Part shown: piece by piece, positions 1,265 through 18,426 of the stretch
Layout: the number at the start of each line of letters is the position of its first letter
How positions within the stretch are numbered: the first letter of the stretch is position 1
NCBI GenBank assembly: GCA_023269855.1
Contig: JAGDWP010000027.1
Span: forward strand, 4,826 to 28,825
DNA from: Nitrososphaerales archaeon
Lineage (GTDB): Archaea > Thermoproteota > Nitrososphaeria_A > Caldarchaeales > Wolframiiraptoraceae
DNA length: 24,000 bases
Direction of reading: 5' to 3'
The notes under the pieces: model-generated
Seen by the model: the letters and a program-made list of their open reading frames with translations, nothing else
What the model was told of the DNA's origin: nothing
Databases searched by the model: none
Position numbers and translations under genes: made by a program

Positions 1265-2214
1265 CTGGGAGGCTCAACCTCCTCAACGATTTCTCTAAGC
1301 AGCTCCATAGTCTCCCGACGTAGTGTGATTGGATTACTACTACGGCTTTTAAGAATAATTCTGTGATTAAAAACTAGGTTAACTACAGATTTTACGTGGT
1401 CAGGTGTTACATAGGGCTTACCTTCTAGAGCGGCTGCAGCTTTTGAAGCATATAATAGTGAGACTTGCCCTCTTGGGCTAACACCTAACAAGACTTGTTC
1501 ATGTTTTCGAGTTTGCTGACCAAGCTTAACTATGTATTCTAGAATTGATCTATCAACATATACTCTTCTTGTTAATTCAATCGCTTTGAGGACATCTTGT
1601 AGGTCTGCAACTTTCTCTACCTCGAGTCTTTCACCATGTATTTGTTTCTTCTCAAGTATTTGGAGTTCATGGGAAGGGTCAAGATAGTCTATGAAGACTC
1701 TTATCAGAAATCTATCAAGTTCAGCTTCTGGGAGAGGATATGTTCCCTCAAGCTCAATAGGGTTTTGGGTAGCAATAATTAGAAAAGGCTTGGGTAGAGG
1801 GTAAACAGTACCTTCAATTGTTACTTGCTTCTCCTGCATACATTCGAGGAGAGCTGATTGAGAACGGGGGGATGCACGATTTATCTCATCCGCCAATACA
1901 ACATTCGCAAATATAGGACCATGTCTAAACTCTAAGGCCCCCTTAGCTCTATTATAAACGATTGACCCAGTTATATCGCTTGGCATAAGGTCTGCAGTAA
2001 ACTGTATTCTCTTAAATTCTAGTCCGAGAGAGTATGAGAAGACTCTAGCTAGATACGTTTTAGCTGTTCCAGGAGCTCCTTCTAAGAGTATGTGTCCCTC
2101 TACAAGTAATCCTATCAAAAGGCTTCTAATAGCTTCATCCATTCCAACTATAATCTCATGAATGTTAGAAGTCAATCTTTCAGCCATATCTTTAATGAAA
2201 CTATACTCATTCAA
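1261..2214 (-). CDS. MoxR-family AAA+ ATPase
   Basis: 317 aa. Walker A is GAPGTAKT and Walker B is VVLADEINRASP. Length and overall sequence pattern (ATQNPIELEGTYPLPEAELDRF) are typical of the MoxR/AAA_3 family. Confidence 0.9.
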   Translation of the reverse strand: MNEYSFIKDMAERLTSNIHEIIVGMDEAIRSLLIGLLVEGHILLEGAPGTAKTYLARVFSYSLGLEFKRIQFTADLMPSDITGSIVYNRAKGALEFRHGPIFANVVLADEINRASPRSQSALLECMQEKQVTIEGTVYPLPKPFLIIATQNPIELEGTYPLPEAELDRFLIRVFIDYLDPSHELQILEKKQIHGERLEVEKVADLQDVLKAIELTRRVYVDRSILEYIVKLGQQTRKHEQVLLGVSPRGQVSLLYASKAAAALEGKPYVTPDHVKSVVNLVFNHRIILKSRSSNPITLRRETMELLREIVEEVEPPR

Positions 2215-2405
2215 TCATTTTCACCTCTATTCTTTATTCTCTGTAACTCGGATGCAAGTAAGTCCGGCCACTCTTTCTTGCTATCTTTCTTACTATCTTT
2301 CTTATTTTCTAAACTCTTACTAACGTATTGGGGGATAAACAGTGATGCAATTATAGTTGAAGCAGCGATGACTAGGATTGTTAAGTTTACGCACATGTTA
2401 TTCAC
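2211..2405 (-). CDS. Small single-pass membrane protein with a lysine-rich KKDSKKDSKKE tail
   Basis: 64-aa ORF with one TM helix (LTILVIAASTIIASLFI). It overlaps both neighbouring operon genes by 4 and 8 nt, which suggests translational coupling. No recognisable family. Confidence 0.45.
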   Translation of the reverse strand: MNNMCVNLTILVIAASTIIASLFIPQYVSKSLENKKDSKKDSKKEWPDLLASELQRIKNRGEND

Positions 2406-2862
2406 CTACATGAGTATTAATCCTTTCACTGAGTGATACGAGTCTTTCAGAAAATTGTTTTATTTCTTCTCCACTTGGGTCATGGCCCCCGAATCTAACG
2501 AGCTCATAGAAGTTGTACATTTCATAAAGGGTGCGGCTTGCATCCTTTGGCAAGTTATTACTAAGGATGTTCAAGACTTCCTTATTCGTTAAATTCCTAC
2601 CAATGTTTATATGATTTGACATTGTTAAATTAACAATTACCTCATTAAAGATAGCTATTACTGCCATTCTACTACCAATGTTCAAAACATATTCTTGGAA
2701 TTTTCTAGCAAAGTCTACTTGATTACTGGTTATCTTATTCTTAGCTTCTCGTACTCGCTTCTTGAGCTTGATATACCTAATCAGAACATAAATTGTTAAA
2801 AATGTTAGAGAGATATCGATTGTTATCCAGAATGCTGTTTCGAGATCTATCATCTGAGCCAC
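2398..2862 (-). CDS. Membrane-anchored DUF4129-like protein
   Basis: 154 aa with an N-terminal TM helix (FWITIDISLTFLTIYVLI). The C-terminal pattern LYEMYNFYELVRFGGHDPSGEEI resembles the DUF4129 signature found in MoxR/DUF58 clusters. This assignment is an inference. Confidence 0.45.
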   Translation of the reverse strand: MAQMIDLETAFWITIDISLTFLTIYVLIRYIKLKKRVREAKNKITSNQVDFARKFQEYVLNIGSRMAVIAIFNEVIVNLTMSNHINIGRNLTNKEVLNILSNNLPKDASRTLYEMYNFYELVRFGGHDPSGEEIKQFSERLVSLSERINTHVGE

Positions 2863-3629
2863 TTCTCTTCAACCTCCACTTTCTCAACTGGGAGAAAACT
2901 AAATATTGGATGAATAAATGTTGGGAAACCTCGAACTTCTTCTATAAATTCAATTGTTTGACCACCAGACTCTAGTCTCTGATAGTTTATCTCAACTAGA
3001 TCCCATACATTATCGAGGCTTATACCTTCTGAGATTTCAAAGTCTCTGTAATGTACTCTTAATTGACCCCATGGAGTATAGTATGTTATGGTGGGTTCAC
3101 CAACATAGTATCTCCCAGTTGTTGGAAGCATAAACGCTATCTTTACATTGGTTAAGCCTTCAAACGGTTCAGGATAAGCATTTATACCTGAAGATTCAAG
3201 CCTAAACCTGTAGAAAGTAATATTAACTTCACCATCAGAGACGACGTTTAGAGAGGTTTGCCAAACTGACTCAGCCCACTTTTTCCTAGCTACTGAAAGT
3301 GTATAGTTTCCTTTAGGTATAATGATGTATGCTTTTCCCTGGCTATCTGTAAAAGTTATCTCCCCACCTATCCTGATGAATGCATTTGATATAGGTGTGA
3401 CTGGAGCTGTCTCATTACCGAAATATGTCATAGAATGTCCAAGATCAGATTCCATCAAGTACATTGTAAGCTTAACGTATTCAGGTTCTTGGATTGAAAG
3501 AGATTCTTGAATGTTGCGTATTATCTGAGCTACAATGTCTTGGCTGCTGGGCATGCTGAATGAAAAAAGGAGAAAGGCCAGAGAAAGTAAAAGGACGACG
3601 ATTGCTGCAAGCGTAATCTTCTTCCACAT
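2850..3629 (-). CDS. Exported or membrane-anchored beta-rich protein, first gene of the MoxR operon
   Basis: 259 aa with an N-terminal signal/anchor (ITLAAIVVLLLSLAFLLFSF). The segment GKAYIIIPKGNYTLSV looks like a carboxypeptidase-regulatory-type beta sandwich. Overlaps the next gene by 13 nt. Confidence 0.55.
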   Translation of the reverse strand: MWKKITLAAIVVLLLSLAFLLFSFSMPSSQDIVAQIIRNIQESLSIQEPEYVKLTMYLMESDLGHSMTYFGNETAPVTPISNAFIRIGGEITFTDSQGKAYIIIPKGNYTLSVARKKWAESVWQTSLNVVSDGEVNITFYRFRLESSGINAYPEPFEGLTNVKIAFMLPTTGRYYVGEPTITYYTPWGQLRVHYRDFEISEGISLDNVWDLVEINYQRLESGGQTIEFIEEVRGFPTFIHPIFSFLPVEKVEVEEKWLR

Positions 3630-14321: not shown

Positions 14322-14417
14322 GGGCCCGTAGCTCAGTCAGGTAGAGAGAAGGGAACACTCGCCGAGAGCGGCGGGCTCTTAACCCGTTGGTCGGGGGTTC
14401 GAATCCCCCCGGGCCCG
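14322..14417 (+). tRNA. tRNA-Lys (anticodon CUU) with a ~22-nt non-canonical intron in the D-arm
   Basis: Acceptor stem GGGCCCG/CGGGCCC. Anticodon arm GCGGG-CUCUUAA-CCCGU (14371-14387). T arm GGGGG-UUCGAAU-CCCCC. Discriminator G, no encoded CCA. The D stem GCUC (14331-14334) finds its partner GAGC only at 14366-14369, leaving about 22 extra nt (about 14344-14365). Exact borders are ambiguous because GAGAG is repeated at both junctions. Confidence 0.85.
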
Positions 14418-14962: not shown

Positions 14963-15060
14963 TGCCCCGGGCAGGATTTGAACCTGCGACAACCCGGTTT
15001 CTCAGTGTGGTGGGTGATAATTCTTCAGCCGGGCGCTCTCCCGGGCTGAGCTACCGGGGC
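14963..15060 (-). tRNA. tRNA-Phe (anticodon GAA) with a 24-nt intron at the canonical 37/38 position
   Basis: On the - strand: acceptor GCCCCGG/CCGGGGC; D arm GCUC-AGCCCGGGA-GAGC; anticodon stem CCCGG/CCGGG with loop CUGAAG[intron]A; T arm GCAGG-UUCAAAU-CCUGC; discriminator A; no CCA. Confidence 0.9.
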
Positions 15061-16519: not shown

Positions 16520-16984
16520 TTAGGGTGGTGGAGTCATCTTATATGTCGCTGGATCAACGTAGGAGTAGTACCAGATTATTGTTTCACCATTACTTAGGAT
16601 ATATTTGTCGCATGCTGATCCACCGGCAGCCCACCCTAGACTCGTCCATATCCACCAACTCCAATACCTAGACTGCTCAACTGACTGTTCTACCCCGTTG
16701 ATAGACTTTACGTATAAGCCCATGGCACCATAAGATTCTGCATCAACAATCCAACCTGCTTCTAGCATAGCATCGTAAAGAGTTAATCCACGTGTTCCAT
16801 TAAACCATATTCTAGTACCGTTCCCATAGTCTATTCCAAGATTTATGATAGCCTTCGATTTTTCAAGCTTCTCTACGAGGTTACTATACTGATAATAATA
16901 GTAGATGGCTGTAAGCGTAGTAGCAACAGCTAGGCAGAGGATGATTATTGAAGCTAAAGCCCATTTATTTTTTACAGCGGCCAT
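16520..16984 (-). CDS. DUF4430-like exported protein with N-terminal anchor
   Basis: 154 aa with a TM anchor (WALASIIILCLAVATTLTAIYYYY). The C-terminal beta domain has the LYVKSINGVEQS...YWSWWIW pattern reminiscent of DUF4430 (transcobalamin-like fold). Overlaps the upstream membrane gene by 13 nt. Confidence 0.5.
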   Translation of the reverse strand: MAAVKNKWALASIIILCLAVATTLTAIYYYYQYSNLVEKLEKSKAIINLGIDYGNGTRIWFNGTRGLTLYDAMLEAGWIVDAESYGAMGLYVKSINGVEQSVEQSRYWSWWIWTSLGWAAGGSACDKYILSNGETIIWYYSYVDPATYKMTPPP

Positions 16985-17553
16985 GACTCAAACCCTCTAT
17001 AACTCTTTTCTAGAATGGAGATAAGTGGAGGCGAGCATACTCCGAAAAGAATAAGATTGCTTAGTTCATGGATTATAGCAAAGGGTATGCCTGATATTAA
17101 GGCTGCCATTATTGGGATGCCGAAAGTTAATGCAAAGGCTACATTTGTAACCAGGTCGTAAATGAATGTTAGGAGAAAACCTGCGGCCCCGAATAGAACT
17201 CTCACCACGACTCGACTATTGGAGTAGTCTGCTAACGAGATCGACTTAGCAAGAAATCCTCCCATTATCCCGTAAATCGCCTCAGACAACATGGTTACAA
17301 TCCAGATCTGGGGCACGAAGCCGTAGGGGTTCAATACTCCGTAAACCATCCATGTGAGAACCCCAATCGATGCTCCAACGGTGGAGCCGAAGACGAATCC
17401 GCTCACGAAGACGAGAAGGTCCATAACCTTAAAGTTAGCTACACCTAACAAGGCATAGTTGGACCCTATGCATGCTGCTACCAGAACGGCGATTAGGCTG
17501 GCTTTCTTGCTCTTTAGCATGATGGATGGATGAACCATCCAATATATAAACAC
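16972..17553 (-). CDS. ECF-transporter S-component-like integral membrane protein
   Basis: About 6 TM helices and a small size typical of ECF substrate-capture subunits. The first codons of the listed ORF spell a perfect TATA box on the - strand (TTTATATA, 17550-17543). The real, probably leaderless, start is therefore likely Met12 at 17520 (MLKSKKASLIAVLV). Confidence 0.5.
   Translation of the reverse strand: MFIYWMVHPSIMLKSKKASLIAVLVAACIGSNYALLGVANFKVMDLLVFVSGFVFGSTVGASIGVLTWMVYGVLNPYGFVPQIWIVTMLSEAIYGIMGGFLAKSISLADYSNSRVVVRVLFGAAGFLLTFIYDLVTNVAFALTFGIPIMAALISGIPFAIIHELSNLILFGVCSPPLISILEKSYRGFESWPL
17543..17550 (-). promoter_or_regulatory. TATA box (TTTATATA) for the ECF-S-like/DUF4430 pair
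   Basis: Perfect archaeal TATA consensus centred about 26 nt upstream of the in-frame ATG at 17520. Confidence 0.45.
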
Positions 17554-17634
17554 TCCCTAGCAGCCTTAAATACCGTATTACTTGCTTAACGAGAAATATT
17601 TGACGCCGTCGCCAGCAGTTTCAAAATAGATAGG

Positions 17635-17642
17635 CTTAAATA
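17635..17642 (+). promoter_or_regulatory. TATA-like box (CTTAAATA) upstream of the structured RNA candidate
   Basis: Centred about 26-30 nt upstream of the first base of the terminal helix (17669). This is the spacing seen at both tRNA genes in this window. Confidence 0.4.
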
Positions 17643-17668
17643 GATGGATAAACTCTTTCTTAGATGAT

Positions 17669-17919
17669 AGTGTAAAGCGCGGACTCTTCAGGATGATGCG
17701 GTTCAGCTTTAGATGGAGGGTCTTCCTCCATCCCTGAAGCTCTTCGAAGAGCTGGTGAAGGGTTGGAGTGGGTTCACCCTGACAGGGGAAGAGGCTGATG
17801 AAGGTTCCAATGAACTCAAGAGGAGCCCTAAGCTAGTGAATCCCAAGAGCTACATATGTCTACAAAAGACTATGTAGCTCAGAACCCAAATTCCAAACTT
17901 AGAGATACCGCTTTACACT
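17669..17919 (+). ncRNA. Unclassified structured RNA candidate (~250 nt)
   Basis: Intergenic island visibly richer in G+C than its AT-rich flanks. Closed by an 11-bp perfect helix (17669-17679 / 17909-17919). Internal perfect hairpins at 17712-17732, 17754-17778 and 17847-17880, a 16-nt palindrome at 17738-17753, and a 13-bp long-range or pseudoknot pairing 17763-17775 / 17882-17896. TATA-like box upstream and a T5 run at 17946-17950 downstream. Strand is inferred from promoter and terminator placement and from a few G-U pairs. It is not certain. Confidence 0.45.
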
Positions 17920-18105
17920 GCGATTGATTTAAGGCTATTAAATAATTTTTACATTAAGAGACCGATACGTAAGCTAGCCTCATATCTTGTGCAGTAGGAG
18001 TTCGTTAATATAATAGTGGAATAAATAATAATTATTTTATCATGTTTTCCAGCTCTTGATGATTGCGATTTATAACTTATAAGTTAGATGGGAGAAGCAT
18101 GATTC

Positions 18106-18426
18106 ATGAGTGAGTTTATCCAAGTTTTGACTAGCATAGACTCTAGAGAGAGAGCTGAAGAGATTTCTAGAAAACTTCTTGAGATGAGACTTGCAGCATG
18201 TGTTCAGATTATTGGACCTGTAAAGTCTATGTATTGGTGGAGAGGGGTTATTGAAGAATCTAATGAATGGTTGTGTTTCATCAAAACTAGAGGTGATTTG
18301 TATAAGCAGGTTGAAGAAATGATTAGAAGTCTCCATGGCTATGAAGTACCTGAGATAATCGTGTTACCAATAATCCAAGGGTTCTACAAGTATCTTGAAT
18401 GGATGTCAAACGAGTTGAAGAAGTAG
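18106..18426 (+). CDS. cutA: Divalent-cation tolerance protein CutA
   Basis: 106 aa. LAACVQIIGPVKSMYWWRGVIEESNEW and HGYEVPEIIVLPI match the CutA1 family pattern. A TATA-like TTTATAAC lies about 30 nt upstream. Confidence 0.85.
   Translation: MSEFIQVLTSIDSRERAEEISRKLLEMRLAACVQIIGPVKSMYWWRGVIEESNEWLCFIKTRGDLYKQVEEMIRSLHGYEVPEIIVLPIIQGFYKYLEWMSNELKK

Follow-up and report, generated by a model that had tools for sequence, protein, structure and literature searches.

The Locus and Its Intergenic Block

The window analyzed here is a stretch of 24,000 nucleotides (nt) from a Nitrososphaerales archaeon (contig JAGDWP010000027.1, positions 4,826 to 28,825, of assembly GCA_023269855.1). In it, a minus-strand ECF-S-like open reading frame (ORF; 16972-17553) and the plus-strand cutA gene (18106-18426) are separated by an intergenic gap of 552 nt, in agreement with the gap of about 550 nt given in an initial annotation of this DNA, which had placed there a candidate free-standing structured RNA gene of no recognizable family. 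We find that the segment 17605-17887 of this gap is very probably a non-autonomous, gene-less derivative of an IS607-family transposon of the Caldarchaeales ('Aigarchaeota', Wolframiiraptor-related), similar to the miniature inverted-repeat transposable elements (MITEs), and that it would encode the scaffold of a TnpB guide RNA.

The G+C content is 0.48 in 17669-17919 and 0.50 in 17707-17887, as compared to 0.31 in the 3′ flank and 0.39 in the whole window. The block described as much richer in G+C than its surroundings is hence enriched, but modestly: since the adjoining ECF-S gene already has a G+C content of 0.46, the composition is that of coding DNA and not the spike of a hyperthermophile RNA gene. 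The plus strand of 17660-17930 folds with a minimum free energy (MFE) of -105 kcal/mol (z = -6.6; 0 of 200 shuffles were as good) and the minus strand of the same region with z = -5.5. The individual elements of the initial annotation were correctly located, namely the repeats GATGGAGG/CCTCCATC (17712-17732) and GGTGAA...TTCACC (17754-17778), the palindrome at 17738-17753, the hairpin at 17847-17880, CTTCAGG/CCTGAAG, a TATA-like box and a T5 run. It was also right that the block is not the leader of either neighboring gene and has a promoter-like element of its own.

Copies of the Block and the Full-Length Element

A degenerate probe derived from the 54-codon ORF at 17713-17874 was run against metagenome contigs and returned 179 matches, often at least 10 per metagenome and many of them at contig ends; the loci of 80 of these 179 matches were fetched. 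By BLASTN, nearly all the fetched loci align to exactly 17707-17887 of the window with 83-89% identity, and many of them have a second conserved block, corresponding to about 17596-17652, located 0.6-1.7 kb upstream. The full-length relatives are about 1.9 kb long and show the order left end (LE), tnpA coding for a serine recombinase, tnpB and right end (RE). In L017, the interval between both blocks holds a 201-residue ORF (1335-1940) and a 419-residue ORF (1906-3165), the latter terminating within the region homologous to the window block. The 201-residue protein matches the IS607 family transposase model NF033518 with 220.5 bits (cut-off 110) and the Pfam domains Resolvase, MerR and HTH_17, and the 419-residue protein matches Pfam Cas12f1-like_TNB with 43 bits (cut-off 26) and the guided_TnpB model NF040570 with 98 bits, just below its cut-off of 100. 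The closest solved structure to the latter is ISDra2 TnpB (8bf8; E = 4e-8), with the homology ending around residue 364, i.e., at the start of the RE block, and the remaining 55 residues being encoded by the block itself. A tnpA gene was found in about 35 of the 80 fetched loci, and the majority of the roughly 180 metagenomic copies are joined to tnpA and tnpB.

By tblastn, the window ORF is 81% identical to residues 366-418 of the L017 TnpB, and the 24-kb window contains no tnpA and no other remnant of tnpB beyond these residues. The tnpB stop codon falls at 17875-17877, 10 nt before the element boundary at 17887. A full copy (L007) was recovered from sample ERZ1669248, which also yielded a contig identical to the window; this is the only hint at an intact copy in the same genome. 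Additionally, a 47-residue ORF annotated in a metagenome-assembled genome (MAG) of Candidatus Methanomethylicaceae (P0041) is 79% identical to the window ORF, and the element family therefore seems to be present in more than one archaeal class.

Ends and Anatomy of the Window Copy

As the LE and RE boundaries are sharp and the rest of tnpA and tnpB is gone, the window holds a gene-less derivative of about 283 base pairs (bp) made up of an LE (17605-17645), a linker (17646-17706) and an RE block (17707-17887). The features of this copy and its immediate flanks are as follows:

17605-17607, plus strand: left junction GCC, a putative target or target-adjacent motif (TAM) with a CC core dinucleotide, by analogy with the IS607 TnpAS (PMC10690162)
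17605-17645, plus strand: LE with TnpA-binding-like repeats ATAGAyTTAA and the tnpA promoter, from sequence conservation
17635-17642, plus strand: TATA-like box CTTAAATA, the conserved LE promoter of tnpA, from the LE alignment
17646-17706, plus strand: linker, degenerate remains of the interval between LE and RE, with the motif GCGCGGACT..GGATGATGCG at 17678-17701
17669-17679, plus strand: 5′ arm of an 11-bp helix, locus-specific, in the linker; its TAAAGCG is common to other gene-less copies, its AGTG is not
17707-17887, plus strand: RE block of 181 nt with constant ends, the predicted ωRNA scaffold, overlapping the last 54 tnpB codons
17713-17877, plus strand: 54-codon ORF, left over from the C-terminal tail of TnpB (L017 TnpB residues 366-419), by tblastn
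17888-~17907, plus strand: predicted ωRNA guide segment in the host flank, adjoining the right end as in TnpB systems (PMC8612924, PMC10055086)
17909-17919, plus strand: 3′ arm of the 11-bp helix, locus-specific, in host intergenic DNA colinear with the element-free locus L097
17946-17950, plus strand: T5 run, a possible archaeal terminator for a read-through transcript, judged from sequence only

The LE is 86-93% identical to the LEs of about 24 loci, in which these are separated from the downstream right end by 0.6-1.7 kb. In 22 of 23 copies the left end is preceded by GCC, and 5′ of this motif each copy has an unrelated sequence. At the opposite end, column identity across 69 copies is about 0.9-1.0 through 17887 (..CAGAACCC) and then 0.3-0.5 from 17888. 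Thus, the boundaries 17669-17919 assigned to the RNA gene do not stand: the conserved unit is 17707-17887 and identity collapses right after it. CC occurs at both junctions, with the LE reading GCC followed by GT and the RE finishing in ..AACCC, and by analogy with the characterized IS607 elements (PMC10690162) it is the likely crossover dinucleotide. No target-site duplication (TSD) is seen on comparing 17599-17604 with 17888-17893, and no terminal inverted repeats (TIRs) are present at the element ends, the 11-bp repeat lying elsewhere. Different copies have flanks that resemble each other no more than expected by chance.

The TATA-like box that had been attributed to an independent RNA gene is present and promoter-like, but it belongs to the conserved left-end promoter of tnpA. 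In L017, the tnpA ATG lies about 22 nt downstream of a TTAAATAG box, and the position of the box ahead of leaderless tnpA genes in the full copies suggests that it acts as a promoter. The linker motif (GCGCGGACT..GGATGATGYG) recurs in three other insertions, namely L029, L013 3741-4014 and the L084-L093 locus.

We considered a mobile unit reaching beyond the LE and RE, prompted by a likeness between the flanks of the window and L029 copies (AGAGnTAcCGCTTTA; AGAAATA), and rejected it because the scores obtained on aligning these flanks (P = 0.04 and 0.39) fall within those seen between unrelated flanks. The flanks are likewise unconvincing as pieces of another inverted copy, all that was found being a self-match of 11 nt and a single match of 20 nt to the interior of tnpB. 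The 20 nt to the left of the element (17585-17604) show a 95% match to the tnpB interior in L010, with an E-value of 3e-4 that was obtained on a very small database; this could be a chance match in AT-rich DNA or the trace of an older copy.

The Insertion and Its Locus-Specific Pairings

The ECF-S protein has a counterpart with 69% identity in a MAG of Ca. Wolframiiraptor sinensis (L001), and one protein neighboring the locus clusters with a MAG labeled 'Nitrososphaerota archaeon'. A contig scan via the ECF-S gene found L001 alone, which is a rearranged locus with no homologue of the block; there, ECF-S and DUF4430 are directly followed by a KaiC-like ATPase and a 157-residue protein, with cutA being absent. 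An exact-protein look-up of CutA recovered only contigs identical to the window. The gene order of the window (aminotransferase, DUF4430, ECF-S and, across the gap, cutA) is kept in L097, whose CutA is 90% identical, and in L098-L100 (66%), with intergenic regions of just 231 nt in the former and 110 nt in the latter set. A covariance model of the block (R1) has one match in the window, with 215.6 bits, and detects no copy in L097, L098-L100 or L001. Once 17608-17887 is taken out of the window, the flanks are colinear with L097, an empty site too diverged for the junction to be placed at single-base resolution. In this alignment, the stretch with the 3′ arm of the 11-bp helix, CCGCTTTACACTGC in the window, corresponds to CCGCAGATACTGC in L097. 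Because the element-free L097 is colinear with the window flanks, the element was inserted at this site, and the 3′ arm belongs to the host DNA. Homologous copies number about 180, and the 71 distinct copies compared below show compensatory changes; the element is absent from the syntenic L097.

This bears directly on the 11-bp helix that was thought to close the RNA gene. The perfect repeat is present, the match is rarer than chance (shuffle P ~0.0008-0.004) and its arms bracket the predicted transcription start and the predicted guide; but its 3′ arm belongs to the host and it was not seen in the other gene-less copies. The same holds for the proposed pseudoknot or alternative fold: the complementarity exists, but half of it is in the host flank, and this half (AAAUUCCAA against UUGGAGU) is specific to the window locus. 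Hence, the helix, like the half of the pseudoknot contributed by the flank, is a quirk of one insertion site and lies outside the RNA family.

A perfect 11-bp inverted repeat with arms about 230 bp apart could also be the mark of a classical TIR-bounded MITE, with AGTGTAAAGCG/CGCTTTACACT as its arms and a DDE transposase as its mover. However, the repeated unit does not end in these arms, the other copies do without them, the right arm is ancestral host sequence, and the true ends match IS607 LE and RE ends with neither TIR nor TSD. We therefore see practically no room for such an element at this locus.

Rfam Searches and the Proposed Free-Standing RNA Gene

At gathering thresholds, Rfam reports only two tRNAs in the whole 24-kb window and no family in 17500-18110. 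Relaxing the search of the latter region to E < 10 yields chance-level matches only, with the best E-value being 0.56 (MEG8_3, 14.1 bits) and the top bit score being 15.0 (NEAT1_2); sR7 reaches 13.7 bits as against a threshold of 37. RNase P and the signal recognition particle (SRP) RNA have no match in this region even at E < 10, and the RAGATH-18-type IS607 right-end element RNAs (reRNAs), HEARO and C/D small RNAs (sRNAs) all stay below the gathering threshold there. We accordingly dropped the RNase P, SRP and C/D sRNA identities, including the divergent or reduced RNase P or SRP RNA suggested earlier. Likewise, the hints of kink-turn/L7Ae sites were rejected: the neighborhoods of the CUGAUGA and CUGA motifs and a conserved hairpin (helix e below) were inspected by eye, with no formal test, and show no 3-nt bulge followed by G-A. 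In 71 copies, CUGAUGA (17793-17803; model positions 87-97) and CCCUGACAGGGG (17777-17788; model positions 71-82) are invariant or nearly so, which may reflect TnpB contacts or the coding frame.

The strong folding z-score, the absence of an Rfam family, an 11-bp terminal helix that is rarer than chance, and a promoter-like box and T-run on either side are what an undescribed free-standing cellular RNA gene of about 250 nt, possibly a reduced RNase P or SRP RNA, would also display. Nevertheless, its core is multi-copy and coincides with the 3′ end of tnpB and an IS607-family right end; syntenic sister genomes are devoid of the block, unlike what is expected of an essential RNA; 17669-17706 and 17888-17919 are not conserved; the 3′ arm of the closing helix comes from the host; and RNase P and SRP find no match. 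Taken together, we consider an independent RNA gene highly improbable. The claim of an unknown family survives in that Rfam has no match, but not in regard to the class of RNA, which is most plausibly a known one, i.e., TnpB guide RNAs (ωRNA/reRNA).

Conserved Structure of the Right-End RNA

The structure was derived with RNAalifold from 71 distinct copies followed by explicit counting of pairs, and comprises the following helices:

17726-17735 / 17759-17768, plus strand: helix a, 4 pairs with compensatory double changes, 92% of cells paired
17738-17742 / 17749-17753, plus strand: helix b, enclosed by helix a, 97.5% paired, with G-U changes only
17770-17775 / 17882-17887, plus strand: helix c, GGGUUC/GAACCC, closing the 3′ domain and adjoining the guide, 98.8% paired
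17777-17779 / 17785-17787, plus strand: helix d, nearly invariant
17804-17808 / 17822-17826, plus strand: helix e, a hairpin with an inner 2 bp, 2 compensatory pairs, 98% paired
17847-17880, plus strand: 3′ hairpin, 8 pairs with compensatory changes

Thus, the plus strand of the block codes for a structured RNA that is conserved, and on this count the initial annotation is borne out by covariation across the 71 copies. Overall, 95.5% of the cells are paired; sliding the 3′ partners by 1-3 columns lowers this figure to 29-50%. Double changes are seen in 14 of 45 pairs, with 92 compensatory cells as against 29±9 in shuffles, a statistic that overstates independence because the copies are close paralogues and mostly also coding. 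The 14-bp hairpin at 17847-17880 recognized earlier is well supported; its pair 17853/17874, for instance, is C-G in 25 copies and U-A in 30. The LE motif recurs in inverted orientation in the loop region of this hairpin (consensus TAAGTCTAT), as a putative TnpA-binding site. In contrast, the GAUGGAGG/CCUCCAUC and GGUGAA/UUCACC helices show no compensatory changes and are disrupted in most copies, single pairs being lost in 51 of 69 and in 57 of 71; both helices are peculiar to the window copy. Single-sequence folds extend helix a through 17719-17725 / 17769-17775; we prefer the GGGUUC/GAACCC pairing over this extension because columns 19 and 63 do not covary. The GAACCC strand of helix c, which constitutes the last bases of the element, is invariant in all 71 copies. 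In a divergent copy without genes, L013 3833-4014 (78 bits), the helices persist although their sequence differs, with CUCCAC/GUGGAG in helix a and CCCCC/GGGGG in place of helix e.

The block also lies in a reading frame, and the entropy at third codon positions is 0.47 as compared to 0.28 and 0.26 at the other two. Within the third positions, it is 0.36 in helices and 0.58 in unpaired regions, a pattern that fits overlapping protein and RNA constraints. In gene-less copies, gene callers report this ORF as a 54-residue protein, with dozens of database entries. One might hence ask if 17713-17877 is a small gene for a functional peptide, given that the frame is intact in the window and in many gene-less copies and that its third codon positions are the most variable. 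However, the ORF is the C-terminal tail of TnpB read from an internal methionine and has no Pfam domain, while the codon-position signal comes mainly from the full-length tnpB copies. Furthermore, stops or frameshifts occur in L012, L021, L022, L027, L063, L068 and L013b with the helices kept, and coding does not explain compensatory base-pair changes. We thus give a peptide gene very little credence.

Gene-Less Derivatives Elsewhere

Among the gene-less derivatives we distinguish three deletion junctions, namely that shared by the window, L029, L013b and L084, that of L078 and that of L082, and every one of these derivatives keeps the LE together with the complete 181-nt block. One gene-less copy, between the genes for Sec61-beta and an Auto_anti-p27 (p27-like) protein, recurs in at least 10 samples (L084-L093; e.g., L084 1385-1675), and the insertion therefore appears to be fixed in a widespread population. 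The L084-L093 copies have an identical 54-residue ORF throughout. L078 is an independent deletion derivative: at about 2900-2995, three tandem copies of its left-end motif TAGACTTAA have been joined to the right-end block, about 25 nt ahead of it. In L029, the left end of a gene-less IS607 derivative is itself host to a nested miniature element of about 89 bp (2838-2926) with perfect 19-bp terminal inverted repeats (AGATGATGTTACGATAAGG / CCTTATCGTAACATCATCT) and a GTTTCA duplication at its flanks.

A Proposed Guide RNA Encoded by a Gene-Less Element

In characterized TnpB systems, the 3′ terminus of tnpB and the RE code for the ωRNA, with the guide lying in the flank (PMC8612924), and gene-less palindrome-associated transposable elements (PATEs) of the IS605 type encode ωRNAs used in trans (PMC10055086). 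In IS607 elements, the recombinase TnpAS acts at a core dinucleotide, leaves a scarless donor joint and operates with neither TIR nor TSD; TnpB-ωRNA then cuts the empty donor joint, which combines a TAM with a guide match, and recombination restores the element (PMC10690162). As the core of the window RNA is the 3′ end of tnpB together with an IS607 right end, we propose that the RE block is most plausibly a TnpB ωRNA/reRNA scaffold. The adjoining 17888-~17907, the predicted guide, differs in every copy and is unique in the window.

By this analogy, the former tnpA promoter would drive transcription from a start near 17665, producing a transcript with the scaffold 17707-17887 and the host-derived guide 17888-~17907. 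TnpB from intact copies elsewhere might load this ωRNA of the gene-less element, and TnpA supplied in trans might mobilize the element via its LE and RE. Upon excision by TnpA, the target would be reconstituted as ..TTTGAC-GCC joined directly to AAATTCCAAACTTAGAGATA; TnpB-ωRNA would then be expected to cut this empty donor site, recognizing GCC and the guide match, with recombination restoring the element.

Several points weigh against this proposal. The ωRNA label draws on position, structure and analogy, and the block fits no Rfam model, including those of the RAGATH-18-type IS607 reRNAs. The copies belong as paralogues to a single young family, with an effective sequence number of 1.04, and most of them are protein-coding too. 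Helix c, being nearly invariant, gains neither support nor refutation from covariation, and the 19 most 5′ positions of the block (17707-17725) are nearly invariant yet unpaired in the model. The window copy itself has a U-U mismatch at 17731/17763 in helix a, and its own minimum-energy fold favors another local hairpin; it may be a decaying copy. Intact tnpA and tnpB genes were not found within the 24 kb.

These last features raise the alternative that the locus is indeed an IS607/TnpB remnant but an inert one, a decaying scar that is not usefully transcribed or used and whose structure is merely inherited. The mismatch falls in a helix supported by covariation, the departure of the MFE fold is from the structure of the family, and the linker is degenerate in addition to the lack of tnpA and tnpB nearby. 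Against this, the 181-nt block is kept at 83-89% identity without indels, and its 215.6 bits equal the score of copies with intact tnpB; the LE promoter is also kept. Moreover, all three deletion junctions retain the full block, far beyond the ~40 nt of the RE with the LE-like motif, and one gene-less copy is fixed across at least 10 samples. We regard an inert scar as a fair possibility, though the less likely of the two readings.

A further extension of the guide-RNA proposal is that gene-less LE-linker-RE elements are stand-alone guide-RNA genes equipped with a promoter, whose locus-specific ωRNAs are used by TnpB in trans. On this speculative and rather doubtful reading, the host may have kept or adapted certain copies, for example the copy between the Sec61-beta and p27-like genes or, through its 11-bp stem, the one in the window.

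Other Features of the Window

An outer imperfect inverted repeat of 28 nt (17544-17571 / 17927-17954; 71%) brackets the entire insertion region, and a third AGCCTTAAATA box at 17562-17572 resembles the left-end promoter box. Since the element-free sister locus shares most of 17544-17581, both the repeat and the box may be ordinary promoter elements. The two tRNA genes of the window, at 14322-14417 on the plus strand and 14963-15060 on the minus strand, have Rfam tRNA scores of 63 and 57 bits and contain inserts, one of 25 nt in the D-loop region and the other of 27 nt in the anticodon loop. Neither of these insert-bearing genes is reported by ARAGORN. They are probably archaeal intron-containing tRNAs, one of them with a non-canonical intron position.

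Comparison with Known Systems and Implications

The window family shares its general organization with the TnpB ωRNA/reRNA systems of IS200/IS605 and IS607 elements such as ISDra2 (Karvelis et al. 2021, PMC8612924), the IS607 element ISFba1 (PMC11061315) and the IS607 CboIStron (PMC10690162), where the RNA is on the same strand as tnpB, overlaps its 3′ end and ends at the right end. In both cases, a structured scaffold of about 180 nt or more is followed by copy-specific flank sequence (PMC8612924), TnpB shows RuvC/Zn-ribbon (TNB) homology, and a serine TnpA lies upstream as in IS607. However, the block has no sequence or structure match to the RAGATH-18 model from which the ISFba1 reRNA derives (PMC11061315). 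Its scaffold is almost wholly inside an ORF, whereas that of ISFba1 is made from non-coding sequence that follows tnpB (PMC11061315). At the junction, the window family has GCC/CC and not AGGAG or TGGG. Unlike the characterized IS607 reRNAs, the window family has a thermophilic archaeal host and is known through sequence alone. By family, the window element is a non-autonomous IS607-type TnpB element with its probable ωRNA module, and its scaffold belongs to none of the Rfam families.

The PATEs (Meers et al., PMC10055086) likewise consist only of LE and RE, keep the ωRNA end and use TnpA and TnpB from other copies. They derive from a Y1/HUH element, in contrast to the serine-recombinase IS607 origin of the window element (PMC10055086), which also lacks the subterminal palindromes for transposition of single-stranded DNA found in PATEs (PMC10055086). 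A further difference is that the former tnpA promoter is fused upstream of the scaffold of the window element, at about 65 nt from box to block. Another archaeal and thermophilic comparison is SisTnpB1 of Sulfolobus islandicus (bioRxiv 10.1101/2023.03.06.531077), for which a guide RNA was predicted from conserved sequence surrounding the tnpB stop codon. Its TAM is TTTAA, as against the GCC junction of the window family; the preprint names both the IS200/IS605 and IS607 families, of which the window family, with its serine TnpA, belongs to IS607. Archaeal RNase P and SRP RNAs fall in a similar size range and have a helix joining their 5′ and 3′ regions; unlike them, the window block is multi-copy, absent from a sister genome and located within tnpB in the full-length copies.

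For annotation, a false lead is removed, as neither a new cellular RNA nor a reduced RNase P RNA is present at this locus. More generally, an intergenic block in an AT-rich archaeon that is richer in G+C and folds well can be a transposon guide-RNA module, and can be miscalled as a 54-residue hypothetical protein. Once its TAM and activity have been measured, a TnpB/ωRNA pair of thermophilic origin whose junction motif is short and of the GCC type could be of interest for genome editing. For the biology of these organisms, our analysis shows an IS607-type TnpB family to be abundant in Caldarchaeales and in other archaea of hot springs. This family has a predicted guide-RNA scaffold without an Rfam model and has given rise to gene-less derivatives retaining the promoter and the whole scaffold. 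Were such derivatives to function as stand-alone guide-RNA genes, they would amount to a dispersed natural 'multi-guide' system in thermophilic archaea.

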